A DNA stretch of 43,027 nt from Candidatus Pacearchaeota archaeon (GTDB lineage: Archaea; Nanobdellota; Nanobdellia; Pacearchaeales; GW2011-AR1): assembly GCA_030699205.1 (NCBI GenBank), contig JAUYJY010000058.1, forward strand, positions 1-43,027, given 5' to 3'. This document shows, piece after piece, positions 8,130 to 38,234 of this stretch. Positions within the stretch are counted from its first letter, which is position 1, and every line of letters begins with the position of its first letter. The notes under the pieces were generated by a model. That model did no database searches. It was not told where the DNA came from and saw nothing but the letters and a program-made list of their open reading frames with translations. A program made the position numbers and the translations under genes.

Positions 8130-8242
8130 GATTTATTAAAAATAATCAGATTAATTCAAAGAGATAACTTAATGCAGTTTTAACAAATACTTATATCCCA
8201 AAATACGATAATATTTATATACTAACCCGCTTAGTTCAAAGC

Positions 8243-9456: not shown

Positions 9457-9569
9457 TTGTCCTCAATAAAAAGAGCAAATCATATATATAAATTTTGTGC
9501 AAGCACGCAAAGTTCGTTTAAACCGAAACATTTAAATATGTGTGTAATCAAAAAGTTACAACGAAAAAA

Positions 9570-11781: not shown

Positions 11782-11875
11782 TATAGTCTAAGACATTTAT
11801 AATTGAGCAGTATTTGTCTTAGACTATTAGCGGAAGAACAAAAAACTGTTCAAAATATTTTGTCTTCTGCTATAT
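11782..11875 (+). mobile_element. R-type MITE-like repeat, copy R2
   Basis: tatagtctaagaca-(19 nt)-tgtcttagacta-tt-agcggaagaacaaaa-(loop)-ttttgtcttctgctatat. This is near-identical to R3, R4, R5 and R7. Confidence 0.85.
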
Positions 11876-13160: not shown

Positions 13161-13326
13161 ACAAATGTTACTTTATCTGTCTGCCTTTCCACATCTGACT
13201 TTCTTTGAATTACTCTATGTATTCCTCCATTGCTGAGTTGTAGATTTCTTTAATAAACAATTAGTGATTAGTGGAAAACAGACAAAAACTCTCACACCAA
13301 CCCAATATTATTAAAACATATAATTA

Positions 13327-13420
13327 ATATAGCAGAAGACAAAATATTTTGAACAGTTTTTTGTTCTTCCGCTAATAGTCTAAGACAAATACTGTTCAAT
13401 TATAAATGTCTTAGACTATA
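13327..13420 (-). mobile_element. R-type MITE-like repeat, copy R3 (inverted relative to R2 and R4)
   Basis: Its reverse complement is identical, by eye, to copy R4. Confidence 0.85.
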
Positions 13421-14983: not shown

Positions 14984-15076
14984 TATAGTCTAAGACATTT
15001 ATAATTGAACAGTATTTGTCTTAGACTATTAGCGGAAGAACAAAAAACTGTTCAAAATATTTTGTCTTCTGCTATA
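14984..15076 (+). mobile_element. R-type MITE-like repeat, copy R4
   Basis: Full two-hairpin element flanked by TA. Confidence 0.85.
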
Positions 15077-15112
15077 GATAGGAATAGTAAATACGATTAG
15101 TTAATGCTTCTG

Positions 15113-15604
15113 CTATATATTTTCTCCAAATTGAAAAGAAAGCGCGTTATACTCTTTTGTGTCATAAACACAAACTCCCTTATCATTCCACAAGACAAAT
15201 TCTGCTATTCCAACATCAAGAGCCATTTTACTGCAAATAGTGCAATATGGTTCTCCAGCTCTTGAAGGTGTTCCATTATCATCAAGACGGATAAAATACA
15301 ATCTTGAGCCAGATAATTTATTAGGATTTTTTCTAAGAGCATCTATTATGGCTCTTTGTTCAGCATGAACACAACAAGTTTTATCCGTCACTTTTTTATG
15401 ATAAGAATCTTTAGAATAGGAACACCTTCTTTGCTCTTCATTGTCTTGTGGCGGACTATTAAAGCCACTGCCAATAATTTCATCTAACTGAACAATTACA
15501 GAACCACATTTTGATCTTTTACAAGTTGCGTTCTGTGCAACTTCAGTGGCTTTAGCAATATATTCAAGCGCTTTCTTTTCTTCATTTCCAGATAAGTATC
15601 TCAT
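15113..15604 (-). CDS. dCMP/cytidine deaminase-family zinc enzyme
   Basis: CVHAEQRAI (HAE) and PCTICSKM (PCxxC) zinc-binding motifs. Confidence 0.85.
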   Translation of the reverse strand: MRYLSGNEEKKALEYIAKATEVAQNATCKRSKCGSVIVQLDEIIGSGFNSPPQDNEEQRRCSYSKDSYHKKVTDKTCCVHAEQRAIIDALRKNPNKLSGSRLYFIRLDDNGTPSRAGEPYCTICSKMALDVGIAEFVLWNDKGVCVYDTKEYNALSFQFGENI

Positions 15605-24395: not shown

Positions 24396-26492
24396 CTATA
24401 CAATATTAGTCGCCGAAGCAGTTAAACTGCATTGGTTTGGTGCAGGTTGATTTCCAAACTCGTCAGCACATTTTATATAATAAACAATATTGGGTTTCCA
24501 TTCAGCATAACTTGTTGTTTTTTCAGTCGCGGGATTATGTATCATCTTTATTCCCTCGTCAATATTAAAGTTACAGCTGTTTAATGAATAAGTGCATTCG
24601 GCAGGCTCATTCGTAACTATCTTTAAAGTATCCAAAAAATGATATGCCCTTGCAACCATTGGTTCTGTAACATCTACAAATACATTAAAGCTCGTGGAAT
24701 CTTCCGCACTATTCCCTCCCGCATCTATACATCTAAAGAAATAGTTATAATCTCCTGAGATTAATGTTAAAACTTGCCGATGTTCAAATCCCCCCGAATC
24801 AAACATCGCAACATAACTCCCTTCTTCTCCAGAATCAGAAAAATAACAAACTGCTTCTCCTTCCTTTGCCCCGTCATCCGTCTTCACATATAATTCAATT
24901 TCAACAACTTCTGTGCTTCCAGTTATTGTTTCATTAGGAGCAACGGAAAGAATGCTCAATGGTTGACTTCCAAGCAAATTGAGATTATAACTTCCCACAT
25001 TAACATTTCTCTCATTATCTGGCTTTTTAGGCTGGTCCTTGCATCTAAAATAATAATTATTCTCTTGTCTGTCAACTATTCCAGTGAGAGTAGTAGAACA
25101 AGTATAAAGCTCTCTTGCATTTATTTCAGTTAATTTTGTTGCACATTGCATTTCTTGTTCCATTTCCTCATACGCCTTGTCTTGAACACTCCATTTACAT
25201 TCCGAAGGTTCATTTACATAAATTTCCATCGGGGTTTCCCCTGAATTATATGAAATATAACTTCCCGATTTAATGGAAGTATCAACAATTATCGGCGGAG
25301 TTGTATCCGGACTTGGGTCCACACAAAATTGGAAGTCAAACTCTCCCACATTCTCATTCCCATTTTTATCCCTGCATCTAACAAATAGATTATATCTCCC
25401 ATCATTCTGTAATTCAGGAGCTTCTGAATTTATCGCATCAGGCGACGGCAAACTCATTACCTGTGTATGATTATATAAATAAAAGTTGCTTTTTCCAAAG
25501 AAGAAACTCATTTCATCCAATGTATCTTTATGAACTATATCTATTTTACATTGTGCTGGTTCATTAGTGGTTATTCCAAAGCTTAATGGTGTAAACGCCT
25601 GCAAACACCCGTTACTCACATCTTCCCTAACAATTTTAGCTCCCAAACTTGGAGGCCTCGTATCATGATTAGTGTATTTATGCTTTTCCGTTAATGGCTC
25701 CTGCCAAGGTGTTATAGTCGGAGGACTTGCATCATTTGGATTCACCCAAGCACATTTTTCTTCAGTAGTTCCGGAATTTACAATCTCACATGCTTGCCCT
25801 AAAGCCCTGCACCTATATTCAGAGCAAGGCCTAAATGGGTCTGCGTTGCATTTCTCACAATCCCCTCCGCCGACAGGAGCTTCAAAAGGAAGACATTGAA
25901 AATCAACCCTGACTTCCTTTTCAGATTTATATAATAAAATAAATACAACAACACCGACCGTAATTCCGATAATTGGTCCTGCAACTCCCTGAGTCAATCC
26001 ATCAATCCCAAATAATGTATCTTTAGCAGCACTACCAATCAAATTAGAAGAAAAAAATCCCGCAAAAGTTCCAACACCCGCCGCAGTGCTTAAAGCATCA
26101 GCCACATTTTTATCAACCCCAAATAAAGTCGTCAATAACTTAACCCCCATATACACAGAAAGCCCCCAAACAGCCCCCTGCATCAACGCACTCGGAATTT
26201 TCCCCGGCGTCGCACCAAACGCTTCTCCAGAATATAACTTCCCGAAGAAACCTGATTCTGTTGGGTTTGGAGTTGTTCCTGCCTCTCTTCCAGCCTGCCA
26301 AGCTTTATCCCTTCCGAGTAATTTATCGAATAAACTCCAAGTAGGTTCTCCTCCTTCTTCCTGCCCGCTAACCCTCTGCGTTTCCCCAATCAAAAACGCA
26401 AACGAAACAACAGAAAAAACTATAAGAAATATTTGCGTAAAAACCAACGTCGTCCCAACTTTATACGGGGGAAACTTTCCTCTCTTTTGCAT
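24396..26492 (-). CDS. 698-aa membrane/surface protein. It has an N-terminal anchor, a Gly-rich membrane region, a Cys-knot-like segment and Ig-like repeats, and is a paralogue of the C-terminal part of the 1333-aa protein.
   Basis: VDFQCLPFEAPVGGGDCEKCNADPFRPCSEYRCRALGQACEIVNSG aligns with VDFSCLPWQPPSGGQSCEECDSDDLGCSEYKCNSLGQNCELLNEG in ORF 33463-37464. The NEPSECKWS and NEPAECTYS repeat markers are shared. Confidence 0.75.
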   Translation of the reverse strand: MQKRGKFPPYKVGTTLVFTQIFLIVFSVVSFAFLIGETQRVSGQEEGGEPTWSLFDKLLGRDKAWQAGREAGTTPNPTESGFFGKLYSGEAFGATPGKIPSALMQGAVWGLSVYMGVKLLTTLFGVDKNVADALSTAAGVGTFAGFFSSNLIGSAAKDTLFGIDGLTQGVAGPIIGITVGVVVFILLYKSEKEVRVDFQCLPFEAPVGGGDCEKCNADPFRPCSEYRCRALGQACEIVNSGTTEEKCAWVNPNDASPPTITPWQEPLTEKHKYTNHDTRPPSLGAKIVREDVSNGCLQAFTPLSFGITTNEPAQCKIDIVHKDTLDEMSFFFGKSNFYLYNHTQVMSLPSPDAINSEAPELQNDGRYNLFVRCRDKNGNENVGEFDFQFCVDPSPDTTPPIIVDTSIKSGSYISYNSGETPMEIYVNEPSECKWSVQDKAYEEMEQEMQCATKLTEINARELYTCSTTLTGIVDRQENNYYFRCKDQPKKPDNERNVNVGSYNLNLLGSQPLSILSVAPNETITGSTEVVEIELYVKTDDGAKEGEAVCYFSDSGEEGSYVAMFDSGGFEHRQVLTLISGDYNYFFRCIDAGGNSAEDSTSFNVFVDVTEPMVARAYHFLDTLKIVTNEPAECTYSLNSCNFNIDEGIKMIHNPATEKTTSYAEWKPNIVYYIKCADEFGNQPAPNQCSLTASATNIV

Positions 26493-26530
26493 ATAAAAGA
26501 TAACAACTTATTGTTTATAAATATTAGTAG
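26386..26530 (-). repeat. F0: 5' end (first ~35 codons), start codon and TATA-box region of the 698-aa gene. This is the master copy of the F direct repeat.
   Basis: ccaatcaaaaacgcaaacgaaacaacag...ctttcctctcttttgcatataaaagataacaacttattgtttataaatattagtag recurs at 27344, 29235 and 30081. Confidence 0.8.
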
Positions 26531-26692
26531 ATTGCTTTCAAAATTTCAATTGTCTTTCCCAGAAACAACTTCAAAATTTAACCTTGCTAATCTCCTTCTA
26601 TTACTTGTCCAGCTTGCAGTATATTTTCCAATGGATAACTTTATACCACTATTTTGATTATACACTCCTCCAACTCCCCTTGATTATTCCAC

Positions 26693-27031
26693 TTAATTTA
26701 AAATTTTCCCAATATTCATCTTTAATTCAGGTATATTTTCTTCTACAACTTTCCAAATAGTTTCTAAGTTAACACCAAAATAGTGATGCATCAGTTTATC
26801 TCTCATTCCCGCGATTTTAATCCATTCAATATGGGGATATCTTCTTCTAAAATTATCTGGGATATTCTTCACAGCCTCGCCAATCACTTCAATACTTCTT
26901 ATTAATGCATTTTGCAATTTTTTATCTTTTAAAAAGTCAGATTTAGCGATGCCCTTTGTAAATTCTTCAATATCTTTTATGGAATCGATTATGTGCCTTA
27001 AAAATATCAAAGAATCTTTCTTTTCATTCAT
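26693..27031 (-). CDS. hepT: HepT-like HEPN (DUF86) toxin
   Basis: R-x4-H motif in GMRDKLMHHYFGVN. 112 aa, overlapping the upstream NTase gene by 4 nt. Confidence 0.8.
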   Translation of the reverse strand: MNEKKDSLIFLRHIIDSIKDIEEFTKGIAKSDFLKDKKLQNALIRSIEVIGEAVKNIPDNFRRRYPHIEWIKIAGMRDKLMHHYFGVNLETIWKVVEENIPELKMNIGKILN

Positions 27032-27309
27032 AAAATATTGACCTCTTCACTTAATATTCTTTTTTTAAGCAGATAATTAATCCCCCCATAAGTAAGCAAA
27101 TCCACTTTTTTCTTCAGCACTTTCTTAATTTCCATTTCCATTTCAACTAAATCAAGCAAACTTCCATCAAAGTCAATCAAAATATCCACATCACTATTTT
27201 TTTTCTGCTCCCCTCTTGCGTAACTACCAAAAATTCCTGCTTTTTTTACCCCATACTTCTTCAAAACAGAAATTATTTTTCCCTTAATTTTATTAATTTC
27301 TTTATTCAT
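27028..27309 (-). CDS. mntA: MntA-like minimal nucleotidyltransferase antitoxin
   Basis: GIFGSYARGEQKKNSDVDILIDF (GS...DxD). Confidence 0.8.
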   Translation of the reverse strand: MNKEINKIKGKIISVLKKYGVKKAGIFGSYARGEQKKNSDVDILIDFDGSLLDLVEMEMEIKKVLKKKVDLLTYGGINYLLKKRILSEEVNIL

Positions 27310-27343
27310 AAAAATAAGTATCTTAATTGATATATAAAATTAT

Positions 27344-27510
27344 CCAATCAAAAAAAACTAAACACAGAAAAAACTATCAAGAATATTTGCCCAAAGACTA
27401 AATTATTAATTTATACAGTATCTCCGATGAGTTTTCTTAAGGGAACTTTGAATAATCAACCTTTCCTTCAAAGTTCTCTTAACTCTAAGATTTATCTTAT
27501 AAATCTTACA
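27344..27510 (-). repeat. F1: degenerate copy of the F repeat
   Basis: ccaatcaaaaaaaactaaacacagaaaaaactatcaagaatatttgcccaaagactaaatta aligns with F3. The distal part is decayed, with a ~40-nt insertion, and there is no ATG. Confidence 0.5.
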
Positions 27511-27623
27511 ATTATCCTGCAAAATCAGAGAGAGGATAATTATTTCTCGAGTAAATATTATCTAAAACCAGATGTCTGGTCTATGAGATAATTATTAAAA
27601 TAGTTTCTTTTGCAATTTAATTC

Positions 27624-27717
27624 TATAGTCTAAGACATTTATAATTGAAAGGTATTTGTCTTAGACTATTAGCAGAAGAACAAAAAACTGTTCAAAATAT
27701 TTTGTCTTCTGCTATAT
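27624..27717 (+). mobile_element. R-type MITE-like repeat, copy R5
   Basis: Canonical sequence. The stem-2 change agcGg to agcAg converts a G-T pair to A-T. Confidence 0.85.
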
Positions 27718-27785
27718 CTGAAATACCATCATAACAGAAAGATTTAAATAGTATAATCGTAATTATACTAATCGTAATTATACAA

Positions 27786-29108
27786 ATGGAATTCAAAGAC
27801 AGGAAAAACGAATTAAAAGAAATAAAAAGTATTTTAGATAGTAAGAACTTTGAATTTTTGATAATATATGGCAGAAGAAGAATAGGAAAAACAGAGTTGA
27901 TATTAGAATCAACAAAAAATAAAAAAAGAATTTATTATTTAGCAACAACAGAAAAGAACGCAGAAAGATTTTACAATGTATGCTTAGAATATAGTAAAGA
28001 TGTTGGAAAATTAAAACAAGATATTGAAATAATAATAGATTATTTAAAAGACAAGACAGAAGTTATAATAATTGATGAATTTCAAAATTTAATAAAAGAA
28101 AATGGCAATATTTTAAACATCTTCCAAAGCCTAATTGATACAAAATTAAAACACACTAAATTAAAATTAATATTGCTTGGTTCATCAGTTTCAATAATAA
28201 CGTCCAAGGTATTAAGCTATAAAAGTCCTTTGTACGGGCGAAGAACAGCATCTTTTAAATTAAAACCTATAAACTTCTTCGACTTAAAAGAATTCTTTCC
28301 AAATAAATCCTTGCAAGAGTTAATTGAAATATATGGTTTTTCAGATGGAATTCCATACTATATAATAAAGATTAATGAAAAAGAAAACTTTTGGAAATGG
28401 TTTGAAAATGAAATTAAACAAGAAAGAAGTTTTTTAAGAGACGAAATAGACTTTATAATGCGATACGAATTCGATAACCCGAGTACTTATAAAATAATTT
28501 TGGAAGCAATCGCAAATGGAAAAAGTAAATTGAATGAAATAAGGCAATATACCAAATTAGAAAGAACAGATATTAGTCCTTATATAAAAAATCTTTTAGA
28601 CGTTGATTTAATTAAAAGAGAAGTTCCTCTAACAGAGAACTTAAAATCAAGAAATGGAAGATACTTTATAAGTGATAACTTTTTATCATTCTGGTTTAGG
28701 TTTATTTATCCAAATTCAAGCAGTATAGAATCCGGATTATTCAAAATTGAAAGAATAAAAGAGAAATATGCAGAATACATTGGCAAGATATTCGAGAAAG
28801 TTGTATTGCAGTATATAATAAAAAATAAAATAATTGAAGCAGATAAAATAGGAAGGTGGTGGTTTAAAGATAAAGAAATAGATTTAATAGCATTAAATGA
28901 GAAAAATAAAGAGGCAACTTTTATAGAGTGTAAATGGAAAGAAGGTATAAATCCAATAAGCCTGCTTCATGATCTTAAAGAAAAGGCTATTCATTTCGAA
29001 TGGCATAATAACAAAAGAAAAGAAAAATACTTTCTTTTTGCTAAATCTTTTAGTAAAGAAATAGAAGATAAAGATGTAACTTTAATCGAGATTAAAGACA
29101 TGCAATAA
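27786..29108 (+). CDS. Archaeal-type AAA ATPase with a C-terminal DUF234-like (nuclease-fold) domain
   Basis: Walker A YGRRRIGKT and Walker B VIIIDEFQ. The C-terminal EIDLIAL...ATFIECKW resembles a D...ExK nuclease core. Confidence 0.75.
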   Translation: MEFKDRKNELKEIKSILDSKNFEFLIIYGRRRIGKTELILESTKNKKRIYYLATTEKNAERFYNVCLEYSKDVGKLKQDIEIIIDYLKDKTEVIIIDEFQNLIKENGNILNIFQSLIDTKLKHTKLKLILLGSSVSIITSKVLSYKSPLYGRRTASFKLKPINFFDLKEFFPNKSLQELIEIYGFSDGIPYYIIKINEKENFWKWFENEIKQERSFLRDEIDFIMRYEFDNPSTYKIILEAIANGKSKLNEIRQYTKLERTDISPYIKNLLDVDLIKREVPLTENLKSRNGRYFISDNFLSFWFRFIYPNSSSIESGLFKIERIKEKYAEYIGKIFEKVVLQYIIKNKIIEADKIGRWWFKDKEIDLIALNEKNKEATFIECKWKEGINPISLLHDLKEKAIHFEWHNNKRKEKYFLFAKSFSKEIEDKDVTLIEIKDMQ

Positions 29109-29113
29109 AGTAA

Positions 29114-29219
29114 TATAGTGCAACAACTTAGTTCTTCGGTTCTTTTTTGTTGTTGCACTATTAGCGGAGCAACTAAAAGCAACCGAAAGATTTAGTTGGT
29201 CTGCTATATATATTTTATC
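29114..29219 (+). mobile_element. R-type repeat, divergent variant R6 (R-b)
   Basis: It has the same termini and linker (tatagt...actattagcgga...tctgctata), but both stems and both loops are replaced by different, still complementary, sequences. Confidence 0.75.
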
Positions 29220-29234
29220 AAATCACAATCAAAA

Positions 29235-29366
29235 ACGCGAACGAAACAACAGAAGAAATTATCAAAAAAATTTGCGTAAAACCAAATTATAATTTAAGAC
29301 ACCAACTCTTTTTTGCATATGTTAAATAAAGATTTATTGTTTGTAAATATTAGTGGAATTAAGCCA
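29235..29366 (-). pseudogene. F2: truncated copy of the 5' end and promoter of the 698-aa gene
   Basis: The minus strand reads ATG CAA AAA AGA GTT GGT..., giving MQKRVGVLNYNLVLRKFF-stop. The upstream tttgtaaatattagtgg matches F0. Confidence 0.65.
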
Positions 29367-29412
29367 TTTCCCTTATAAGAATGTTTATAAGTTAAATTCT
29401 CTATTATTAAAA

Positions 29413-29775
29413 ATGGAAAAAGAATATAAATTATGGATGAAAAAGGCAGAAGAAGATTTAGACACGGCAAAGTATAATTTTGAAGGAAAAAAATTTTCGG
29501 CAAGCTTATTTTTTTCGCAACAAGCAGCCGAAAAGGCACTCAAAGCTTTTAACATAAAAATAAATAAAGAGTTAATTAAAACACATGATTTGTCTCTTCT
29601 TGCAAGAAAAGTAAATGCCCCTGTGGAAATAGAAAATTTGTGCAAATCCCTTAGTCCCGCATACCAATCAACGAGATACCCCGATATAATTCAGAAAAAT
29701 GACATGAAAGATGAGGCAAAAGAACTGCTCAAATCAGCGGAGGAAATTGTAGAATGGGCAAAAAAGAAATTATAA
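29413..29775 (+). CDS. HEPN-domain protein (classical HEPN, partner of the downstream NTase)
   Basis: 120 aa starting from MEKEYKLWMKKAEEDL. The patterns FSQQAAEKALKA...HDL..L and YQSTRYPD are typical of HEPN. It overlaps the NTase gene by 22 nt. Confidence 0.7.
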   Translation: MEKEYKLWMKKAEEDLDTAKYNFEGKKFSASLFFSQQAAEKALKAFNIKINKELIKTHDLSLLARKVNAPVEIENLCKSLSPAYQSTRYPDIIQKNDMKDEAKELLKSAEEIVEWAKKKL

Positions 29776-30071
29776 GAATGATTAATGGCTTTATAAAAAA
29801 AGCACAAAAAGAAATTGCAATAAATAAAGTAATATTATTTGGAAGCCAAGCATCTAATACAACGCATAAAGACAGCGATATAGACTTAATAATAGTATCT
29901 CCAGATTTTGAGAGTATGAGTGCTATTCAACGTGCCGCAAAACTATACAACTATTGGGAAGCCCTGTATCCTGTGGATTTTATTTGTTACACTCCAAAGG
30001 AATTTAATATTCTAAAAAGAAGAATTACCATTGTAAAAGAAGCTCTTTCCAAAGGAATTATTGTAGTCTGA
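29754..30071 (+). CDS. Minimal nucleotidyltransferase (MNT-type)
   Basis: LFGSQASNTTHKDSDIDLIIVSP (GS...DxD). Confidence 0.75.
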   Translation: MGKKEIIRMINGFIKKAQKEIAINKVILFGSQASNTTHKDSDIDLIIVSPDFESMSAIQRAAKLYNYWEALYPVDFICYTPKEFNILKRRITIVKEALSKGIIVV

Positions 30072-30076
30072 ATTTT

Positions 30077-30213
30077 TTATCCAATCAAAAACGCAAAAGA
30101 AACAACAGAAAAAACAATTAAAAATATCTGCCCGAAAACTAAATTATAATTAAAAACCTTTCCTCTCTTTTGCATATAAAAGATAACAACTTATTGTTTA
30201 TAAATATTGGTGG
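30077..30213 (-). pseudogene. F3: near-identical truncated copy of the promoter plus the first 32 codons of the 698-aa gene
   Basis: The minus strand 30175->30077 encodes MQKRGKVFNYNLVFGQIFLIVFSVVSFAFLIG-stop. F0 encodes ...FTQIFLIVFSVVSFAFLIGETQ. The ~55 nt around the ATG and TATA box are almost identical to F0. Confidence 0.8.
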
Positions 30214-30221
30214 AAATTAAA

Positions 30222-30692
30222 TTAATTTCCATCTCCTTGTTTAGAAAGATAACCATGTAAATAACCACTGATATACTTTTTAATCATCTTGTCCCTTTCA
30301 TCATCTTTTTTGATATGCTTATATCTCTCTCTAGCATTTTCCATAGCTCTCATTAATACTTTCCGAGGAATATTGTTTTCTCTTAAAATTTCAAAAATCT
30401 CCTTCCCACTATTTTGAGTATAACTTCCATTTTCTTGCCCTGTATAAACATTAACTTCACTCCTCCCAACATCAGCAATCACAGCTCTATTTATTGCACT
30501 CCCAAGAAGCGACGCAGCAGGGCTCCCTTTACTGGCCCCCAATCCTCCAATACCAGAACCAAGAAGAAGTCCTCCGACCTGTGAATCTGTCATTCCACAT
30601 CCAGAAGTCAAAGAACCAGCCACAAGAACCAATCCAGCCAATCCACCTTTGACGGCTCTCCCCAAACCACTTTTCTGTGAATCAGAAACCAT
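30222..30692 (-). CDS. Glycine-zipper lipoprotein-like protein
   Basis: Lipobox-like LTSGC and a GxxxG-rich segment GGLLLGSGIGGLGASKG. The C-terminal half is charged and helical. GC is visibly higher than in the neighbouring sequence. Confidence 0.55.
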   Translation of the reverse strand: MVSDSQKSGLGRAVKGGLAGLVLVAGSLTSGCGMTDSQVGGLLLGSGIGGLGASKGSPAASLLGSAINRAVIADVGRSEVNVYTGQENGSYTQNSGKEIFEILRENNIPRKVLMRAMENARERYKHIKKDDERDKMIKKYISGYLHGYLSKQGDGN

Positions 30693-30823: not shown

Positions 30824-30917
30824 TATAGTCTAAGACATTTATAATTGAAATGTGTTTGTCTTAGACTATTAGCGGAAGAACAAAAAACTGTTCAAAATAT
30901 TTTGTCTTCTGCTATAT
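30824..30917 (+). mobile_element. R-type MITE-like repeat, copy R7
   Basis: Canonical termini and stems. Loop 1 differs (ttgaaatgtgt). Confidence 0.85.
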
Positions 30918-31080: not shown

Positions 31081-32628
31081 TCATATTTCTTCGCTTGTAA
31101 CTTTATACCCAGAATCATATCCTTGTCTTCCAAGCCAATTCAACGAAGGTCCGCAATCTCCCAATGCACTGCAAATTTCTCCCTTGTCTTTTTCCCATTC
31201 TTCTGTAAGGCATTCGCATCCCTCAACACATTCTTCTCCCCCAAACAATCCTTCTTCAAACTTTACAATGCAGACAGCATTTCCTTGTGAGCAAATTTCA
31301 AGTGTTTCTGCATCATCCCAGAAGTTAAATCCTGGAGAATTTTCAGGAAAGCAACTGCCAGTTCTCTCCGTTGTATTTGTTTGCAAGATGACCCCTTCCT
31401 TCCAGAAACAATCTCCCTTATCTTCATTTTCACAATCTCTTTGCTCTGTCTGTCCGGCACAATACTGCCATCTATTTACTTTACAAACTGCTTGCGAAAA
31501 ACCAGAAGTTTCTTCTTGGATGCATTCTTCCGCCCTAAAGTCAGAGCATTGTTCTAAAACTTCTTCTCCATTAATACAAAGATGCCTATAAAACCTGCTT
31601 CCAACCGTATTTTTGCCGTCCCCAATACTTCCAAAATCATCATTCACACACCAGCTTTCTCCATGCAAATAATCATTTCCATTCTCTGTATCTTTACAGT
31701 TTAAATCAGCACATATAAAATCTCCATAAGTCGCAGATTTACCTGCGATATTCTCTGCCCTGCAATAGCTTCCTTCCAGATAATTGCAATTTCCACAAGA
31801 ACTACTTCCAGCATTTCCACTTCCCGGACTGCAACTCTCATCTTTTGGTTTTATATTGGTCCAATATTCCGCGTCATTTACTTTACTTGCATCATAAATA
31901 TTTGCGGTATTCCCGCAAGAATCTATAAAATAAACCTCATCATTCCCTGGATTGCATGTTGTTTGCGTCGTTGGTCCGCAATTAGTCCCCAACTCTTCGG
32001 CACTGCATAATTTTCCGGAATAAAAATTTCCATCTGTAATAGTTATATTGCTTTCTCCCGTGCCTGCTTTCTGTGACCCTTCACATTCACTTCTCGTAGT
32101 AAATTCGCACGTCTTTTCAAATTCAAACTCATAAACACAAGCACCCCTCTCTTGTGTCTGCACTTTTTGTATGCACGCAAGTTCGTTCTGGACAGAAGTA
32201 TCATAATTTGTTTTTAATCCAAGAGACGCAGATAGTTTCTTGCATCTGACTAAAGAAACAAAAGCCGCCTGGTCTCCAAGAATACAGCATCCCAATGCAC
32301 ATTGAGGCGGGCTTTCTTCACTCCAAACGCCCCCATTATCATTGCAAACTAATTGGGGAGTGTTATCTAAACAAATTCCTTCAGAAGAATCATAGCAAAC
32401 CCCTGGTCTGCAATAACTTGTTGAATCACACGAAGTAGGCACTGCCCTCGCACCAGGAGCACATTCTTCGGCAGGCACATTCTGACAGGAAGCACCTGTA
32501 TTTGTCTGCTCACAACACACCGTCGCCGAACTTCCCTGTGCAAAAACAAAATCCGTATTAAAATAAAAAACTCCCCCTGATAAAACTAATAAAAACACAA
32601 TCCATATAGCAATTATTTTTCTTTTCAT
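31081..32628 (-). CDS. 515-aa secreted cysteine-rich protein, a paralogue of the N-terminal domain of the 1333-aa protein
   Basis: The start was moved to MKRKIIAIWIVFLLVLSGG (a Sec-type signal), whose ATG lies 1 nt after the upstream gene's stop. I count about 43 Cys. EVYFIDSCGNTANIYDASK matches EVYFIDSCGNRGNIYDSNK, and SALGDCGPSLNWLG matches MSLGDCGASVNYNG. Confidence 0.75.
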   Translation of the reverse strand: MKRKIIAIWIVFLLVLSGGVFYFNTDFVFAQGSSATVCCEQTNTGASCQNVPAEECAPGARAVPTSCDSTSYCRPGVCYDSSEGICLDNTPQLVCNDNGGVWSEESPPQCALGCCILGDQAAFVSLVRCKKLSASLGLKTNYDTSVQNELACIQKVQTQERGACVYEFEFEKTCEFTTRSECEGSQKAGTGESNITITDGNFYSGKLCSAEELGTNCGPTTQTTCNPGNDEVYFIDSCGNTANIYDASKVNDAEYWTNIKPKDESCSPGSGNAGSSSCGNCNYLEGSYCRAENIAGKSATYGDFICADLNCKDTENGNDYLHGESWCVNDDFGSIGDGKNTVGSRFYRHLCINGEEVLEQCSDFRAEECIQEETSGFSQAVCKVNRWQYCAGQTEQRDCENEDKGDCFWKEGVILQTNTTERTGSCFPENSPGFNFWDDAETLEICSQGNAVCIVKFEEGLFGGEECVEGCECLTEEWEKDKGEICSALGDCGPSLNWLGRQGYDSGYKVTSEEI

Positions 32629-32629
32629 T

Positions 32630-33388
32630 TTACACATACCCTTGAGGCCACACAAGGCTTCTCGAAGCAAAAGTAAACTCATCTCCTGTAATAACATTCC
32701 TTAATTTATATATTGTGTCTCCATTCCTTTTTATCTTTTCCATATTCAAATCAGGATAATAAGAAATATATAAACTCGTCTCCGCATCTCCAAAAGTGGA
32801 TTCAAACTGAATTATATTTGTTGCCAAAGAAAGCAAATCATACAATTCGGAGTTAATTGAAACAGCAAATTTACTAAACGTCTGTACTGATTCTTTTTCA
32901 ATGGTCATCGGAGAAAGAAAATTCACTGCAATTTTTCCCAATTCAATATCTACCTCAACTTGCCCTTGAGTTGTCCTCACGCTATATCCTTGGCTTTTGT
33001 ATTGCTCTTCCAAATTCTTTACACATTGTCTTGCTACTGGTTCTATTTTTCCCTTAATTTCTTCTTCCATATGTTTTACCAATAAAGGTTGTTGAACCTT
33101 GCATGGTAAATAATTTTCCGAAGTATAGCAAAGATATTGTATTTTATTATCTAAATACATCAGATAATTATCAGGCTCCAAATATCCCCCTTGCTTGCTT
33201 AAAACTGAAAGAGTATCTTTGACTTCAGATTCAATGCAACTTCTCAAATAAGAACTTGGATTTACCTCACTGCTTAAAATACTAACTCCAGGAAAGAAAA
33301 AAAGCAAGGTAATTCCGACAACTATCACTATTGCAATAATAATAAAAATAGTCACCTGCCCTCTTTTATCCATTATTATTTTACTCAT
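32630..33388 (-). CDS. Prepilin-like protein (class III signal peptide), 252 aa
   Basis: The N-terminus is MSKIIMDKRG|QVTIFIIIAIVIVVGITLLFFF. It is a paralogue of ORF 37470-38234. Confidence 0.65.
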   Translation of the reverse strand: MSKIIMDKRGQVTIFIIIAIVIVVGITLLFFFPGVSILSSEVNPSSYLRSCIESEVKDTLSVLSKQGGYLEPDNYLMYLDNKIQYLCYTSENYLPCKVQQPLLVKHMEEEIKGKIEPVARQCVKNLEEQYKSQGYSVRTTQGQVEVDIELGKIAVNFLSPMTIEKESVQTFSKFAVSINSELYDLLSLATNIIQFESTFGDAETSLYISYYPDLNMEKIKRNGDTIYKLRNVITGDEFTFASRSLVWPQGYV

Positions 33389-33462
33389 AGTTTATTTATA
33401 AATAATTGCTCTTTCCATTTTATCAATCATTTAGAAGATAATTTCTTCAAACATAGATTTTC

Positions 33463-36400
33463 TTAATATCCTCCGCTTATCGTCAGACAGCTCCCCACAT
33501 TTTCATAAATATCTCTGCACTTAATTCTATAAACTAATCCTAAATCAAATGGAGTAGTATGCAAATAGTTTTCCCCACTCATTAACTCTCCGGAATCAAA
33601 GCTGAATCCGCAATTTGTATTTGTGTATGTGCATACAGCCGGCTCATTTGTAACAATATTCAAAACATTTCCCGATGAATAAATTCTGGAAGCAATAGGT
33701 CCCTTATTGTCTACCTTAACTTCAAAATTGGCAGTTTCTAAAGCAACATTTCCAGCAGAGTCGGTGCATTTTAATTCATATTCATAATTTCCATTTGGAA
33801 GAGTCAAACCTTTTTGTAAATGCACTTCTCCCCCGGTTGGAAAGAAGCCACTATAATGTATCACATTGCTTGATTTATGCTCACAAATTGCATTATTATT
33901 CACTCCTCCGGAAGTATGTATCTCCAAATCAATAACTGCAAAAGCACTTCCGCTATAAACTATTTCATCATCTGGATAAATATAATCAATTACTAAAGGG
34001 TTTAGGGTTTTCTTTATTTGATATTCTTTTTCTTGGTCTGCTTTATTTCTATCTGTATTATTTATTCCAAGCCAAGGTTGGTCTTCACACTTAAAATAAT
34101 AACTTTCAGTTTCATTTCCCTGCACGGGAAGGTTTGCAAGACAAGACCATCCATTAATTGTGCCTTGATTTATCCCATTAGAACAAGCCGCAAGATTTTC
34201 CATTTCATCATAACCCTTATTTTCAGGACTCCACTTACACTCCGCAGGCTCATTAGTAAAGAAAGTTAAACTAAAATTTTCAGCTTCAAACCCTGCATAT
34301 CCCGGATTCTCTGGAACAAACTTGGTTATCACTGCTGGGGTTTTGTCGTCTGCAGGCTTCACACAGAATTTTATTGCATATTCAGCAGAGTTATCATTTC
34401 CCGAACTATCCTGACATCTTACAAACATATTATAGTTCTCTCTTCTGTCAGGTCCAACACCTCCAACACCCAAATCAGAGAGGGAAGGCATAGTTAAAAG
34501 AGCATCATGATTTTCTTTGTACGAATTACTCTTTCCAAAGAACATTTCCATTTCATCATATGTATTTGTATGCTCAAAACTATATTTACATTGTCCGGGT
34601 TCATCTAAACTAATTCCAAATTCTATCAGAGAAAATTCTTTAATGCAACCATCTCCCGAAACAGATTGAATTTCAGTTCCAACATTTATCACCGAATTCT
34701 TATATTCAAATCCATCAGAAATTACATCATCCCATTTATCTATCACTGGAGGAGATGTATCATTAGGATTTATATCAACGCATGTTTGTTCCGAAGTACC
34801 TTCATTTAACAACTCGCAGTTTTGTCCGAGACTATTGCATTTATATTCGGAACATCCCAAATCATCTGAATCGCATTCCTCACAGCTTTGTCCTCCCGAA
34901 GGTGGTTGCCAAGGAAGGCAAGAAAAGTCAACAGTTACTTCTCTCGTTTCTCCTCCTAATAAACTCAATATAACTGCTATAACAACAATTATAAGAATTG
35001 TCCAAAATAAGAAAGGTCCTAATGCCGCACCAAAAGATGCACCTTTCGCAACAAACGTAGTTGTTTCAAATGCTAAATATCCCATAACTGCACCGACAAC
35101 TGCCCCCGCAATAACGAGTGTATTAAGGCTTTTTCCCTCTAATCCAAATACAGTTCCTAAGATATAAGCAATCGCCGCACCCGCCGCCGCACCACCGGCT
35201 GCCGAGCCAAAAGGCCCTAAACTTTTAGGAACGCCTGCAACTACCGCTTCGCCAGCACCCGCTGCCGCACCTACACCCGAAGCAGCAGCGGTAGCAGCAC
35301 CAGAAACCGCCCCAGCGCCAGCCACCGCACCAGAAGTAATCGCAGCAATAGGTATTCCTTCAATCAAAACAAAATACATCGTCGCAACACCAATAGACCC
35401 CAAACCAATCTGTCCCATAAGTGCACCCAATTGGCTGGGATCTGCATTTACAGGGTCAATTCCAAAAATTGCAAGTATTTCTTCTCCTGAAAGTGCATCA
35501 GCACTCTGTCCGGGAATTGGAGTGGAATATTTTCTTAAGCCATTAAGGTAATCATCACTTAAACCATTTCCCCCAACCACATTATATCCATCACTGCTCA
35601 ACTCCCCATTATAATTAACAGAAGCTCCACAATCTCCTAAACTCATACATAAATTATTCATAGTTTCTGCAAATTTAGGTTCTGCACACCCACAATTAGC
35701 TACGCAATCCCAGCTTCCCAGAAACTTTTCTTCAATATATGTGCAGGTTTGACTTCCCAATGATGAACAAAGCCCTTCAGCAGAACTTTCCCTTGATTCC
35801 TTATCAAATCCTGGAGGATATTTTGGAACGCATAAATCAAATTTAAAGAATTCATCAACATCTACATGCTTCAAAAAACAATCAGTATTTTCTTCGCATT
35901 TGTTTAACTTGTTTTTATCTCCATTTGCAGCATAACAAACCTGCCACGTATTTGCTCTGCAAGATGCAGATGAAAAGTCAATTTCCTCATTTTTATTTTC
36001 AACACAAACTTTGCTTCTCACAGCAGAACAAGATTCCGTTCTAATTTCCCCATCAAAACAGGTCTGTGTATAATGTGCACTTCCCGGAGTATCAACACTC
36101 CTTTCTTCGTTGCTTCCTTGGTTCTCTCTTGCTTCCTCTTCATAATTACACCACCCTTCAAGTTCAGGGTTTTCTGCAACCATCGTCGCATTTTGACAAA
36201 CTCTATCAGAAGTTATTCTTCCATTTGAACCTGGAGGACACAACCAATTTATAAATTGATTCCCGCTTGTTCCAGTTGGATTTAAATACCTATCACAAAT
36301 ATTTCCTAAAACTCCTTCGCGGTTTGAAGAAGTTTCATCAACTCCAATCTGTCCGTCAAACCTGCACCAACTCTCTCCATTTTTTCTTGTTTCTCCTTGA

Positions 36401-37464
36401 TAATCCACACATCTCAAATCCTTACAAACATAATCTCCATAATTTGCATTGTCATCTTTTCCGCTTACAGGTTTTCCACAAATACTTCCCAATAAATATC
36501 CACAACTTCCGCAGGATTTTTGATTTCCAAAATTATTGGATATTGTTCCTAAACTACAACTCTCACTTATGGGAACAACATCATTCCAATAAACTCCTGC
36601 AAGTTTGTTAGAATCATAAATATTCCCTCTATTCCCGCAAGAATCTATAAAATAAACTTCATCCCTTCCTTCAAAGCAGTTAGTCTCCTGAGTAATTTCA
36701 CAAATAGTTTCAATTCCCTCTCCATTAATCTCTAAATCTTCCGCAGTGCATAATTTATTTTTAAAAAATTCACCCCCAGAACCTAAACAAACAGATTTTG
36801 TTGCAAACTCGCAATTATACTTTCCTTCTTCAGGGATTAATTCTAAGATACAGGCACCTTCTTCTTGAGTATTTGACAATAATAAGCACTCAAGTTCATT
36901 ATTTACACTAACCCATTCAACAGGGGTAGAACCAAATGCTCCAGAAAGATAATTGCATTGTTGTTCTGTGGTATATTGCGTTTGTCCTGCTCCGCCGTTT
37001 CCATCAGGATTTATCAAACAACAATTTCTGTTGCATATTCCATCTAAAGGATTCCAAGTTCCCCCAGAATTTTCACAAGTCAATTTAGGACTCCCATCAC
37101 TGCAAGTTCCAATTAGAGGGTCAAAACAAGTTCCTATTCGGCATTCAGCAGTATTCTCTCTTGCACTTTCAACACAACCACCGGGACAAACATTAATATC
37201 GGCACATTCCGAAGAAGGATACTCCTGACATATTGTTCCATTATTATCTTCCAAACAAGTCCATAAAAGTTCTTGTGCACTTACAATCCCCCCACTCAAC
37301 CAATCCAAAACTTTCCACCTCAAAAAACTAATAAATTTACTTTCTCCAACATTTTTAATTTCATTTTCTACAAACAAATCATTAGTTTCTCCAACAATAT
37401 ATGAAAAAGAAACAACAGACATAATTACTAAAAAAATTTCAAACAATGCTTTTCCTTTATTCAT
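33463..37464 (-). CDS. 1333-aa giant cysteine-rich membrane/surface protein
   Basis: The start was taken at MNKGKALFEIFLVIMSVVSFSYIVG. An N-terminal Cys-rich domain is followed by a Gly/Ala-rich multi-helix membrane segment. The C-terminal repeats are marked by NEPAECKWS, NEPAVCTYT and C-x-D-x-x-GN. Confidence 0.8.
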   Translation of the reverse strand: MNKGKALFEIFLVIMSVVSFSYIVGETNDLFVENEIKNVGESKFISFLRWKVLDWLSGGIVSAQELLWTCLEDNNGTICQEYPSSECADINVCPGGCVESARENTAECRIGTCFDPLIGTCSDGSPKLTCENSGGTWNPLDGICNRNCCLINPDGNGGAGQTQYTTEQQCNYLSGAFGSTPVEWVSVNNELECLLLSNTQEEGACILELIPEEGKYNCEFATKSVCLGSGGEFFKNKLCTAEDLEINGEGIETICEITQETNCFEGRDEVYFIDSCGNRGNIYDSNKLAGVYWNDVVPISESCSLGTISNNFGNQKSCGSCGYLLGSICGKPVSGKDDNANYGDYVCKDLRCVDYQGETRKNGESWCRFDGQIGVDETSSNREGVLGNICDRYLNPTGTSGNQFINWLCPPGSNGRITSDRVCQNATMVAENPELEGWCNYEEEARENQGSNEERSVDTPGSAHYTQTCFDGEIRTESCSAVRSKVCVENKNEEIDFSSASCRANTWQVCYAANGDKNKLNKCEENTDCFLKHVDVDEFFKFDLCVPKYPPGFDKESRESSAEGLCSSLGSQTCTYIEEKFLGSWDCVANCGCAEPKFAETMNNLCMSLGDCGASVNYNGELSSDGYNVVGGNGLSDDYLNGLRKYSTPIPGQSADALSGEEILAIFGIDPVNADPSQLGALMGQIGLGSIGVATMYFVLIEGIPIAAITSGAVAGAGAVSGAATAAASGVGAAAGAGEAVVAGVPKSLGPFGSAAGGAAAGAAIAYILGTVFGLEGKSLNTLVIAGAVVGAVMGYLAFETTTFVAKGASFGAALGPFLFWTILIIVVIAVILSLLGGETREVTVDFSCLPWQPPSGGQSCEECDSDDLGCSEYKCNSLGQNCELLNEGTSEQTCVDINPNDTSPPVIDKWDDVISDGFEYKNSVINVGTEIQSVSGDGCIKEFSLIEFGISLDEPGQCKYSFEHTNTYDEMEMFFGKSNSYKENHDALLTMPSLSDLGVGGVGPDRRENYNMFVRCQDSSGNDNSAEYAIKFCVKPADDKTPAVITKFVPENPGYAGFEAENFSLTFFTNEPAECKWSPENKGYDEMENLAACSNGINQGTINGWSCLANLPVQGNETESYYFKCEDQPWLGINNTDRNKADQEKEYQIKKTLNPLVIDYIYPDDEIVYSGSAFAVIDLEIHTSGGVNNNAICEHKSSNVIHYSGFFPTGGEVHLQKGLTLPNGNYEYELKCTDSAGNVALETANFEVKVDNKGPIASRIYSSGNVLNIVTNEPAVCTYTNTNCGFSFDSGELMSGENYLHTTPFDLGLVYRIKCRDIYENVGSCLTISGGY

Positions 37465-37469
37465 TACAA

Positions 37470-38234
37470 CTAAATTCCGGCAGGAATTACACACCCCCTT
37501 ATCGCTAAATTCATTTTCTCTCCCGTTTTTTTATTTATTATACTATAAATGTTTGTCGAATCTCCAAAAAGTGTCTTCCTTATATCATAACTTGGATAAA
37601 GTGCCATAAATCCATTATTGCTAAAATGACAAAATTCAGCCTCTTGGTCTACAATCTCACTTGCAATATAAACTAAATTATAAGCATCACTCTTTACGAA
37701 AACATTAAAACTCTCAAAGTTTCTCACAACATCCCCCTTGATGATTGAAAAATCTCTATTAATTTTAGCTTCAACAATTTCAGGCCTAAAAGTAGTTTCA
37801 ACAGAAACGCCCCCTCCGGAAACTTCATAATTCTTATTTGTTAATTCATTATCAAGAGAAGCAAAACATTCTTCCACATCTTTTTTTACTTCTTCATTTA
37901 ACTCCTCTTGCAGTTTAATAATAAGTCGGGGGTATTGATTTACGCACGGCTCATAGTGCCTTATATTCTTGCAAAGATAAGCAACCTTTTCATTTTCATA
38001 AATCTTATAATCTATAGGATTAACAAAACCTCCACGAGGCAGCATTTCATCAATAACTTTTAACGTCGCCTTTTTCACACAGCCGTCAATAAAGCTTTCA
38101 GGATTATCGGAGCCCTGTCTCAAAATCTCAGGTTTTTTATCAATTAAGAAAAACAATCCAATTGCAACCACAATAACTATTGCAATTGCAACAAAAATCA
38201 TTATTTGTCCGCGATTATTCATTTCAAAACCCAC
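37470..38234 (-). CDS. Prepilin-like protein (class III signal peptide), 254 aa
   Basis: The N-terminus is MGFEMNNRG|QIMIFVAIAIVIVVAIGLFFLI. Confidence 0.65.
   Translation of the reverse strand: MGFEMNNRGQIMIFVAIAIVIVVAIGLFFLIDKKPEILRQGSDNPESFIDGCVKKATLKVIDEMLPRGGFVNPIDYKIYENEKVAYLCKNIRHYEPCVNQYPRLIIKLQEELNEEVKKDVEECFASLDNELTNKNYEVSGGGVSVETTFRPEIVEAKINRDFSIIKGDVVRNFESFNVFVKSDAYNLVYIASEIVDQEAEFCHFSNNGFMALYPSYDIRKTLFGDSTNIYSIINKKTGEKMNLAIRGCVIPAGI

Follow-up and report, generated by a model that had tools for sequence, protein, structure and literature searches.

The 5′ end of p698, a gene for a 698-aa surface protein, has probably taken up small, self-contained accessory cassettes at least three times within its first ~110 bp, each time with a ~150-bp direct duplication of the promoter, the ATG and the membrane-anchor codons; the insertions were likely guided by homology, with no recombinase encoded by the element. 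The resulting array of duplicates (F0–F3) corresponds to the published "insertion with long target duplication", here with toxin-antitoxin (TA) cassettes, in an archaeon and three times in one target. F0, the copy nearest the gene body, keeps p698 whole, and F3, F2 and F1 are short non-productive starts, terminated directly after the anchor. The relevant features of the 43,027-nt stretch of DNA analysed (the window) are listed below.

24396–26492, minus strand: p698, the target of the insertions (ORF call)
26386–26545, minus strand: F0, functional copy, with TATA box (26514–26521), ATG (26490–26492) and anchor codons
26693–27309, minus strand: cassette A, HepT toxin (26693–27031) and MNT antitoxin (27028–27309) genes, from Pfam
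27335–27480, minus strand: F1, decayed truncated copy lacking TATA and ATG and retaining the anchor part and the junction TTTTTGATTGGATAA
27624–27717, minus strand: R5, one of the dispersed R elements (94 nt, double hairpin)
27786–29108, plus strand: cassette B, antisense to p698, encoding a 440-aa protein with ATPase_2 and DUF234 ("archaeal ATPase")
29117–29210, minus strand: R6, an R copy that has diverged with compensatory changes in its stems, abutting the end of F2
29215–29371, minus strand: F2, truncated copy with TTTACAAA (29340–29347), ATG (29316–29318) and the junction TTGATTGTGATTTGATAA
29372–30075, plus strand: cassette C, HEPN (ATG 29413 to 29775) and NTase (29754–30071) genes, antisense to p698
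30076–30228, minus strand: F3, leftmost (gene-distal) copy, with TATA (30197–30204) and ATG (30173–30175)
30222–30692, minus strand: Gly-rich lipoprotein gene (156 aa; ORF call), a conserved resident upstream of p698
30824–30917, minus strand: R7, an R copy upstream of the lipoprotein gene, 97% identical to R5
37386–37470, minus strand: anchor codons at the 5′ end of the 1343-aa paralogue (p1343), 63% identical to F0

The four direct copies of the p698 start were found in one orientation, on the same strand as p698, as an earlier note on this DNA had claimed. They belong to a 67-nt repeat family (26381, 27335, 29220, 30076 and 37386; 63–84% identity to the reference copy) and an 81-nt family (26452, 29278 and 30135). 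The 31-nt anchor core gave three matches at ≤3 mismatches, against none in 100 shuffles. F0 and F3, described in the note as nearly identical around the ATG, share 51 identical nt spanning the TATA box and the ATG, followed by ~45 columns of ~45% identity with a 12-nt indel and by anchor codons that match at 45 of 51 positions. F2 and F3 are identical at 117 of 161 positions, and F0 is a mosaic, with a promoter identical to that of F3 and variants in common with F2. Purifying selection could be a partial cause of the promoter identity in F0. In a relative whose protein identity is 60%, the promoter is conserved to ~82%.

At its end (26386–26396), the F0 repeat reads TTTTTGATTGG and passes into the gene's GGGAAACG; TTTTTGATTG is still present in F1 at 27345–27354. 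The junction TTGATTG..GATAA is common to F1, F2 and F3, whereas F0 runs on as GGGGAAACG. The note had correctly read the change of GGG GAA to GGA TAA, the F2 and F3 peptides and the decay of F1. The F2 ORF is frameshifted and has 18 codons; that of F3 is intact, with 32 codons ending in LIG-stop. The F3 peptide is similar to N-termini that are native in relatives, so F3 is probably the ancestral gene start. All of the fragments end at the anchor end, with no trace of a gene body after any of them.

The p698 product consists of an N-terminal membrane anchor, a variable linker and a Cys-rich/Ig-like body; it has a weak Pfam match to Big_13 and more than 1000 homologues in DPANN archaea. The synteny prim-PCNA-p254-p1343-p252-p538-[gap]-p698-pilin-like genes is conserved. 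Lipoprotein genes stand at the position of the 156-aa gene in L001, L003 and L004, and this gene is a marker of the pre-insertion neighbour. The distant copy that the note had placed at the start of a 1333-aa gene is present at p1343; it was rejected as a cassette border, being a paralogous anchor outside the array that reflects ordinary paralogy.

The cassettes occupy the F intervals to within a few nt, and Pfam matches agreed with the modules named in the note. Cassette A (HepT-like, 1e-29; NTP_transf_2/Polbeta, 2e-16) has the orientation of p698 and is separated from F0 by ~150 nt. Cassette B (ATPase_2, 9e-29; DUF234, 2.5e-24) is bracketed by R5 and R6, two of the six R copies in the window. 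Cassette C (HEPN PF05168, 5e-29; NTP_transf_2, 7e-13) has a TATA-like upstream region of its own and fills the ~0.7-kb F2–F3 interval, with the NTase stop codon 4 nt from F3.

Relatives were compared at the genus/family level: the searched collections contained no strain-level relative of this genome (best, 61% protein identity), and neither the exact pre-insertion allele nor circular or deletion variants were seen in them. At the closest homologous loci the gene start is single and cassettes are absent, and a single start lies directly downstream of the lipoprotein gene or p538 in L077, L001, L003, L004, L008, L009 and L011. Five other Woese/Pacearchaeota lineages, L007, L010, L028 and L029 among them, have other cassettes at this point, flanked by their own 76–131-nt duplicates of this gene start, and a sixth, L002, has a diverged fragment of it. 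Three copies (69–114 nt matched) and two TA pairs occur in L007, where every junction is an ATGA-type overlap; the duplicates measure 116 nt in L010 (95% identity, around 6.4 kb), ~130 nt in L028 (79%) and 76 nt in L029 (95%). Gene 3′ ends are duplicated as well in L029 (118 and 41 nt) and L019 (69 nt). The cargo of relatives also includes RelE/ParE and PIN. These empty sites and other arrays support the note's view that cassettes entered the 5′ end of the gene one after another and left an intact start each time. The break lies no more than about 25 nt past the anchor in six lineages, which is incompletely explained by selection or homology.

To survey TA loci in general, we examined 72 NTase-HEPN and 72 MNT-HepT pairs together with shifted controls. 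Flanking direct repeats were found at 17/72 NTase-HEPN loci (controls, 5/100) and 18/72 MNT-HepT loci (controls, 2/117), that is, at 24–25% of loci against 3% of controls (combined Fisher p = 1e-9), and flanking inverted repeats at 0/144. The repeats are always local, differ with locus and phylum, range from 36 to 273 nt and, where checked, are starts or stops of the neighbouring gene. Tightly flanked inserts measure ~0.7–0.8 kb, with the 3′ end 4–33 nt from the stop codon. More than 30 unrelated assemblies show the repeat-cassette-repeat signature. It is found at dozens of unrelated gene ends across many phyla of archaea and bacteria, including single-copy housekeeping genes such as an ABCE1-like gene (L156) and a glutathione peroxidase gene (L243). 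These results indicate that gene-end duplication around TA cassettes is a general phenomenon, which the earlier note had missed.

Homology-guided integration of cassette DNA that carries a gene-end copy is favoured by the mosaic F copies and by two comparisons of pre- and post-insertion states. The displaced fragment of L002 is 78% identical to the real gene start of L003, a relative with ~85% identity, and 67% identical to the functional start of L002 itself. The relic copy of L243 and the hairpin downstream of it match the only gene end present in the relative L246, and the functional gene end of L243 matches a different allele, L245. The interior of the L243 repeat has derived states common to both copies, which in-situ duplication fits as well. 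Such a true long target-site duplication, with incoming DNA free of homology, would require an unknown transposition-like or replication/repair process, with staggered breaks 36–270 nt apart or a template switch to an upstream position. The local and variable repeats agree with it, as do the event-specific borders of the L029 insertions, the 95–100% identity of the repeats in L126, L131, L182 and L211, and the near-constant insert size and 3′ end position, which suggest a discrete unit. However, the mosaic or foreign-allele gene ends of L002 and L243 are unexpected under this process, the identical borders of F1–F3 are left unexplained, and we found neither conserved termini among the compared junctions nor a candidate inserting enzyme. 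To our knowledge, no mobile element produces duplications so long and variable. We consider in-situ duplication rather unlikely.

The note had also proposed an att-site or integron-like platform, on which a tyrosine or serine recombinase encoded elsewhere would use the F copies as att sites for tandem accretion. Repeats in one orientation with one sharp common border would be expected of it, and elements that carry replacement gene ends, such as tRNA 3′ ends or icd for phage 21, do form arrays of units bounded by direct repeats in which the element-borne copy restores the gene. Those elements have an integrase, a conserved core, few targets and units usually of at least several kb; the units here measure 0.7–1.9 kb and have many lineage-specific targets. 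Integron arrays likewise stack small promoter-poor cassettes, often TA pairs, downstream of one promoter, and integrons have been reported in archaea (preprint), but here there is no IntI, attI or attC hairpin and what is repeated is the promoter of the host gene itself with its 5′ codons. The archaeal integrase Int-pTN3 of a Thermococcus plasmid recombines any homologous pair of at least ~100 bp (Cossu et al. 2017, PMC5495485), a minimum that repeats of ~100–150 bp fit. This enzyme comes from hyperthermophilic Thermococcales plasmids, and no homologue was seen in the window. We know of no link between Int-pTN3 and TA cassettes. As the note had stated, there is no integrase nearby and the sites are unlike attC: integrase and transposase domains were absent from the 19 window ORFs scanned and from the 10 scanned insert ORFs of relatives (L010 and L029), and the repeats, which in each lineage copy its own local gene end, have neither an attC-like internal palindrome nor a core conserved across lineages. 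With the signature spread over so many unrelated gene ends, bacterial ones included, a site-specific platform is quite improbable; of the interpretation in the note, the insertions are supported, the homology handle fits best and the platform is not supported.

It is still less probable that no insertion took place and that the F fragments are decayed 5′ remnants of tandem surface-protein paralogues, with cassettes drifted into the dead space. The locus is built of paralogues (p1343 corresponds to p538 + p698), and lipoprotein genes with common 5′ ends and different bodies occur in L002, L028 and L097. Against this stand the uniform end of every fragment at the anchor, the tightly filled intervals, the single start in the closest relatives and the same unit at single-copy housekeeping genes. 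An artefact of this short-read metagenome contig is barely credible, even though repeats are classic sites of mis-joins: the F copies are 63–90% identical overall with unique flanks and so would not be collapsed or chimerised, the L029 array is found again in three other independent assemblies of different origin (two complete, one partial), and the pattern is not confined to one assembly.

Under homology-guided integration, the incoming cassette DNA, a circle or an "ends-in" fragment, would carry a copy of the neighbouring gene end, and a single homologous crossover within that end would integrate the cassette. The gene would stay intact only if the handle includes its start or stop, which would account for the constant presence of a gene terminus within the repeats. 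Campbell-type (single-crossover, ends-in) integration of a circle with a host-gene fragment is established suicide-plasmid genetics; it yields the same handle-insert-handle structure and the same dependence on the start or stop, ~100-bp repeats suffice, and recombination between the repeats reverses it. It is, however, a laboratory construct, not described as a natural route of TA spread, and no circular form was observed in this analysis. Once two copies are present, F × F exchange could add, swap, amplify or delete cassettes, and addictive TA pairs would resist loss. The same borders and GATAA stop in F1–F3 would not result from three independent events whose borders were random, so a later step would be needed, such as F × F exchange or an amplification after which cassettes were replaced.

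Insertion with long target duplication was described for bacterial restriction-modification gene complexes by Furuta, Abe and Kobayashi (2010, PMC2853133), with an earlier report by Nobusato et al. (2000, cited in PMC2853133 and PMC3874152). In that account, as here, a small addiction-type gene unit without a mobility gene lies between long direct repeats of variable length (there ~46–423 bp in the quoted tables) that are single-copy in empty-site genomes, the repeats often cover a translation start or stop, so that the target gene stays intact, and the flanked units can amplify. The cargo there consists of restriction-modification genes in bacteria, no archaeal case passed its screen, and a break made by the restriction enzyme is proposed as the cause. 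In contrast, the cargo here consists of RNase-type TA pairs (HEPN/MNT, with RelE/ParE and PIN in relatives) and an ATPase, with no DNA-cutting activity able to make a break; the hosts are DPANN, other archaea and bacteria, and three events are stacked in one target. We found no description in the literature of such insertion for TA cassettes or in archaea.

We searched the window for further copies of the 5' end of p698 (24396-26492, minus strand), the 698-aa surface-protein gene, which comprises a TATA box (26514-26521), an ATG 21 nt further downstream and ~35 membrane-anchor codons. The segment was found at four sites, all in the same orientation, as copies of ~140–160 nt, termed F0 (the functional copy) to F3 (the gene-distal copy), and in the same search the start of the paralogous 1343-aa gene p1343 carried a 63%-identical anchor. 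Upon alignment, the TATA box and ATG lay in a 51-nt stretch without a difference between F0 and F3; the next ~45 columns showed ~45% identity and a 12-nt indel, and 45 of 51 anchor positions matched. F2 contains a frameshift and a point mutation in its TATA box (TTTACAAA), and F1 retains the anchor codons but neither TATA box nor ATG. At ≤3 mismatches, three copies of the 31-nt anchor core were found vs 0 in 100 shuffles. F1, F2, and F3 share an end point and a stop-creating GATAA, whereas F0 runs on into the gene. The repeat search, the alignments and the shuffle test thus bore out the four direct copies of the p698 start described in the earlier note. F3 looks like the ancestral start of p698. 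F0 also contains a G+C-rich stretch, GTTTCCCCCGTATAAAGTTGGGACGACG (peptide FPPYKVGTT; 26436-26475, minus strand, p698 codons 6–18), in which four extra codons are missing from F1–F3 and from the relatives.

The following features lie between the F copies or elsewhere in the window.

Cassettes between the F copies and copies of the ~94-nt intergenic R element
27309-26693, same strand as p698: cassette A, MNT and HepT genes (Pfam), overlapping at 27028-27031
27786-29108, opposite strand to p698: cassette B, ATPase_2/DUF234 gene (Pfam), bracketed by two R copies (R5 and R6)
29413-30071, opposite strand to p698: cassette C, HEPN and NTase genes (Pfam), overlapping at 29754-29775
11782-11875, minus strand: R copy
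13328-13420, plus strand: R copy
14984-15077, minus strand: R copy
27624-27717, minus strand: R copy
29117-29210, minus strand: R copy
30824-30917, minus strand: R copy

All four HepT/MNT and HEPN/NTase genes scored above the Pfam gathering scores, and the cargo of cassettes A and C, adjacent overlapping small genes with matching domains, is predicted to be type VII/II HEPN-MNT toxin-antitoxin modules. R is a dispersed repeat that occurs on both strands, and only one of the cassettes has it at its borders. It consists of two 12-bp hairpins bracketed by the invariant blocks UAUAGCAGA, CCGCUAAUAGU and ACUAUA, and compensatory changes preserve both stems in R6 and in one foreign copy. Copies in other Woese/Nanoarchaeota MAGs (82–88% identical, with unrelated flanks) include those in L035, L054, L055, L057, L066, L070, and L074, where L-numbers denote loci of related or surveyed genomes. 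A comparison of R with Rfam gave no match, and R is either a MITE/REP-like element or a novel small RNA. Two R triplets, starting at 11782/13328/14984 and 27624/29117/30824, have nearly equal spacing (0/1546/3202 vs 0/1493/3200 nt) with unrelated intervening DNA, which may be a coincidence.

The window comes from a DPANN archaeon, with Woesearchaeota, Pacearchaeota, and Nanoarchaeota MAGs as the best matches. p698 belongs to a surface-structure locus whose gene order was conserved in ~25 independent loci: primase, PCNA, p254, p1343, p252, p538, a gap, p698, and four pilin-like genes. p1343 has the domain content of p538 plus p698. The p538 and p698 halves are fused in L011 (L011:7631-11779; p1343 = window 31081-37494), and the locus forms a duplicated module (p254-p1343 / p252-p538-p698). 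Proteins whose signal peptides are of the class III (KRG|Q) pilin type flank it, and the PCNA and primase genes adjoin it. In many relatives, the p538-p698 gap is empty or holds no more than two small lipoprotein genes, with 1 nt separating the p538 stop from the p698 ATG in L008, and the 156-aa Gly-rich lipoprotein gene of the window is such a gap resident. In the closest relative, L077 (60% protein identity), the locus comprises p538, a 120-aa gene and p698; it has a single start and lacks any cassette. These comparisons indicate that F3 and F0 are separated by 3.5 kb of extra DNA. At the genus/family level, a single gene start was present at the empty site in L077, L001, L003, L004, L008, L009, and L011. 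Exact-protein look-ups of p698 and the lipoprotein, and a scan of genome and viral collections with the F DNA pattern, gave no match; a metagenome scan and a search of 5.8 billion proteins gave no relative above 61% and no empty-site allele of the window genome.

Other lineages carry PIN/RHH, RelE-like, and VapC-like pairs in the gap and on the 3' side of p698 (L079:6461-9364; L014:7865-8710; L019:12736-13178), and the p698 locus serves as a general toxin-antitoxin sink. The small lipoprotein genes of the gap have promoter-plus-signal-peptide segments that are 82–97% identical in four loci.

Repeated lipoprotein 5' segments
L002:3946-4074 / 7751-7879
L028:737-860 / 4435-4534 / 8535-8658
L079:7025-7127 / 9396-9498
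L097:5051-5212 / 6317-6481

The gene bodies differ in L002 and L028 despite the near-identical 5' segments, and it looks as if the lipoprotein 5' ends are recombination handles for body swapping. Dispersed repeats were also seen in L008 (14343-14560 / 15048-15271; a 224-nt unit with a 56–58-aa ORF ahead of two pilin-like genes) and in L079 (6227-6325 / 13210-13308; 99 nt, 97% identity, 7 kb between copies).

Comparable arrays were found at the p698 locus of related lineages, as listed below.

Duplicated gene starts in related lineages
L007: first ~37 codons of the p698 homologue three times (114-nt alignments; 94% and 68% to the reference copy), with an HEPN-NTase pair and an MNT-HepT pair between
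L010: 116-nt repeat, 95%, with 6.4 kb and about seven genes between
L029: 76-nt repeat, 95%, with an MNT gene and a ParE-like pair between
L028: ~130-nt repeat, 79%, with an antisense AAA ATPase and a lipoprotein gene between
L002: diverged promoter, ATG, and anchor fragment adjoining an antisense NTase-HEPN pair

The repeats of different lineages are unrelated in DNA, each being copied from a gene of its own genome, and the break point in these arrays is always 2–9 codons past the hydrophobic anchor. All junctions in L007 are ATGA-type overlaps; in L010, the upstream copy, which comes after the p538 stop, no longer has an ATG, and the downstream copy has a new TATA box. The layout of L002 is the same as that of F3 with cassette C. 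Gene 3' ends were duplicated as well: in L029, an NTase-HEPN-like pair is flanked by 118 nt of the end of a p1343-like gene and a RelE/ParE pair by another 41 nt, and in L019, a RelE-like pair is flanked by 69 nt of the p698 3' end. The L029 arrangement recurs in three more independent assemblies (two complete and one partial), which indicates that the structures are not mis-assemblies; all of its near relatives L081–L085 have the same arrangement, so that they provide no pair of states before and after insertion. The single-start relatives and these parallel arrays, built from local sequence elsewhere, support the earlier suggestion of insertions that regenerate the gene start. In L028, the inserted AAA ATPase gene has a second copy of its own promoter and 5' end (6639-6808 / 8169-8338; 170 nt, 94%), so this process targets the cassettes as well.

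To survey such cassettes, we fetched 79 loci with a cassette-C-like NTase and 80 with a cassette-A-like HepT from Archaea and Bacteria, with one genome per species, and scored repeats of ≥35 nt and ≥80% identity with one copy on either side of the gene pair.

Repeats flanking HEPN/MNT cassettes and shifted pseudo-cassette controls
NTase-HEPN: direct 17/72; inverted 0/72; control 5/100; Fisher p 4e-4
MNT-HepT: direct 18/72; inverted 0/72; control 2/117; Fisher p 6e-7
Combined: direct 35/144; inverted 0/144; control 7/217 (3%); Fisher p 1e-9

The repeats were 36–273 nt long, and the insert size where the repeat abuts the pair was mostly 708–800 nt, with outliers to 958. Where checked, the repeats were ends of neighbouring genes, namely 3' ends in L092, L143, L158, L182, and L243 and 5' ends (signal peptide or N-terminus) in L108, L126, L156, L211, and L213. 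The hosts include Nanoarchaeota, Methanosarcinales, Methanomassiliicoccales, Patescibacteria, Chlamydiae, and Bacteroidota, among others. The termini of 13 repeat-flanked NTase-HEPN cassettes exhibited no evident recognition sites beyond AT-rich promoter-like stretches. These results indicate that the insertion mode is common for HEPN/MNT cassettes.

Insertion with long target duplication was described by Kobayashi's group for bacterial restriction-modification genes, with an unexplained mechanism: variable long direct repeats, single-copy in empty-site genomes, surround an insert without mobility genes, and the group's screen gave no archaeal case (PMC2853133). The group's 2013 review describes it for restriction-modification systems only and treats toxin-antitoxin mobility as carriage on other elements (PMC3874152), and reviews attribute the mobility of these modules to transport by plasmids, phages or integrons (PMC2701414, PMC3874152). 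Our full-text literature searches found no report of long target duplication for toxin-antitoxin cassettes or archaea, which is not proof of absence. The window inserts (0.7–1.9 kb; cassette C, ~0.7 kb) resemble this mode in lying below the 20-kb limit and between direct repeats above the 30 bp of Furuta et al. 2010, and in having no mobility gene in the scanned ORFs. The resemblance may extend to single-copy empty sites, which were seen in relatives at the genus/family level and in the L002/L003 and L243/L246 comparisons, while the collections searched held no strain-level relative of the window genome. They differ from the mode as defined in that the cargo is HepT/MNT, HEPN/NTase, and ATPase_2-DUF234 rather than restriction-modification genes. 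The window array represents this known, still unexplained mode of insertion in an archaeon, in triplicate and with toxin-antitoxin cargo.

The earlier note had likened the array to tandem accretion at an att site or an integron-like platform, a comparison left unsupported by the scans. A Pfam scan detected no integrase, resolvase or transposase domain in 19 window ORFs, a set that covers the whole array and its neighbours, or in ten insert ORFs of L010 and L029. An integron is not supported, as the 19 window ORFs include no IntI tyrosine recombinase and the F copies at the cassette borders contain no attC-like palindrome or internal inverted repeat. Accretion at an att site is not supported either, because the scanned ORFs encode no integrase and the repeats are lineage-specific local gene ends without a common core; a tRNA-type att site was rejected, Rfam and tRNA scans giving only one tRNA-Pro distant from the region. 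A bacterial promoter/terminator scan was uninformative for an archaeon. Duplication by a CRISPR-like ruler enzyme does not agree with the variable repeat length (36–273 nt). Retro-insertion through an RNA intermediate was considered because the inserts are almost exactly two ORFs; it was set aside, since the F repeats extend to the TATA box, which precedes the transcript start, and many cassettes carry 40–100 nt of upstream DNA. A longer original duplication, with the 160-nt spacer upstream of F0 as a lipoprotein-gene remnant, was discarded, since the only match was 17 nt long and was reached in 2 of 300 shuffles.

Two routes to the repeats fit the anatomy. Cassette DNA with a copy of a gene end could enter by one homologous crossover (Campbell or ends-in), in which case the gene would be left intact only by handles with a start or stop, and this would explain why the repeats sit at gene termini. 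Alternatively, the target could be duplicated in situ via staggered breaks or a template switch. F0 is a mosaic with the promoter of F3, a divergent middle part with four extra codons, and variants in common with F2. L003, ~85% identical to the L002 genome, has a single start, which is 78% identical to the displaced fragment of L002 and 67% to its functional start; the working start of L002 therefore came from a more distant allele. The gene bodies of the two are 86.5% identical, and no alignment was possible for the linker behind the anchor. The relative L246 has a single gene end, to which the relic copy of L243 and the hairpin downstream of that copy correspond; the working gene end of L243 and 46 nt match another allele, L245, which diverges exactly at the MNT gene start. 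These sequence comparisons point to a crossover over in situ duplication, and we favour the former. Against it, the source of the handle-bearing DNA is unaccounted for, derived states are common to both L243 copies inside the repeat, several repeats are 98–100% identical, and possible selection on the promoter could bear on the mosaic F0; these points keep in situ duplication in contention. In the p698 homologues of L002 (9643-9979) and L003 (9667-9979), allele homology ends exactly at the F-type repeat end point. After a first event, exchange between F copies or amplification with cassette replacement could enlarge the array, as the identical borders of F1–F3 suggest.

A wider proposal, which we regard as improbable on present evidence, is that HEPN/MNT pairs, and probably toxin-antitoxin pairs of other types, are independently mobile and spread in archaea and bacteria by a novel mechanism shared with restriction-modification genes, which would duplicate 36–270 nt of a gene terminus independently of known transposases or integrases and would be either a dedicated host DNA-repair/replication route or an activity linked to the polymerase-beta-type nucleotidyltransferase of the cassette. 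If this is true, F-like gene starts would be docking bays that can be renewed, through which streamlined genomes take up defence and addiction genes.

The movement of chromosomal toxin-antitoxin genes, a question two decades old, becomes testable. About one quarter of two HEPN/MNT cassette families have a countable signature, long direct repeats of a neighbouring gene start or stop. This signature connects the mobility of toxin-antitoxin genes with long target duplication, itself unexplained, as described for restriction-modification genes, and brings archaea into that phenomenon. The duplicated gene starts give rise to decoy promoters and mini-ORFs that are prone to annotator miscalls, and to repeats where cassettes can be lost, amplified or exchanged. 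In DPANN genomes, which are almost without intergenic DNA, the duplication of a gene start or end admits new genes and leaves the old ones unbroken.
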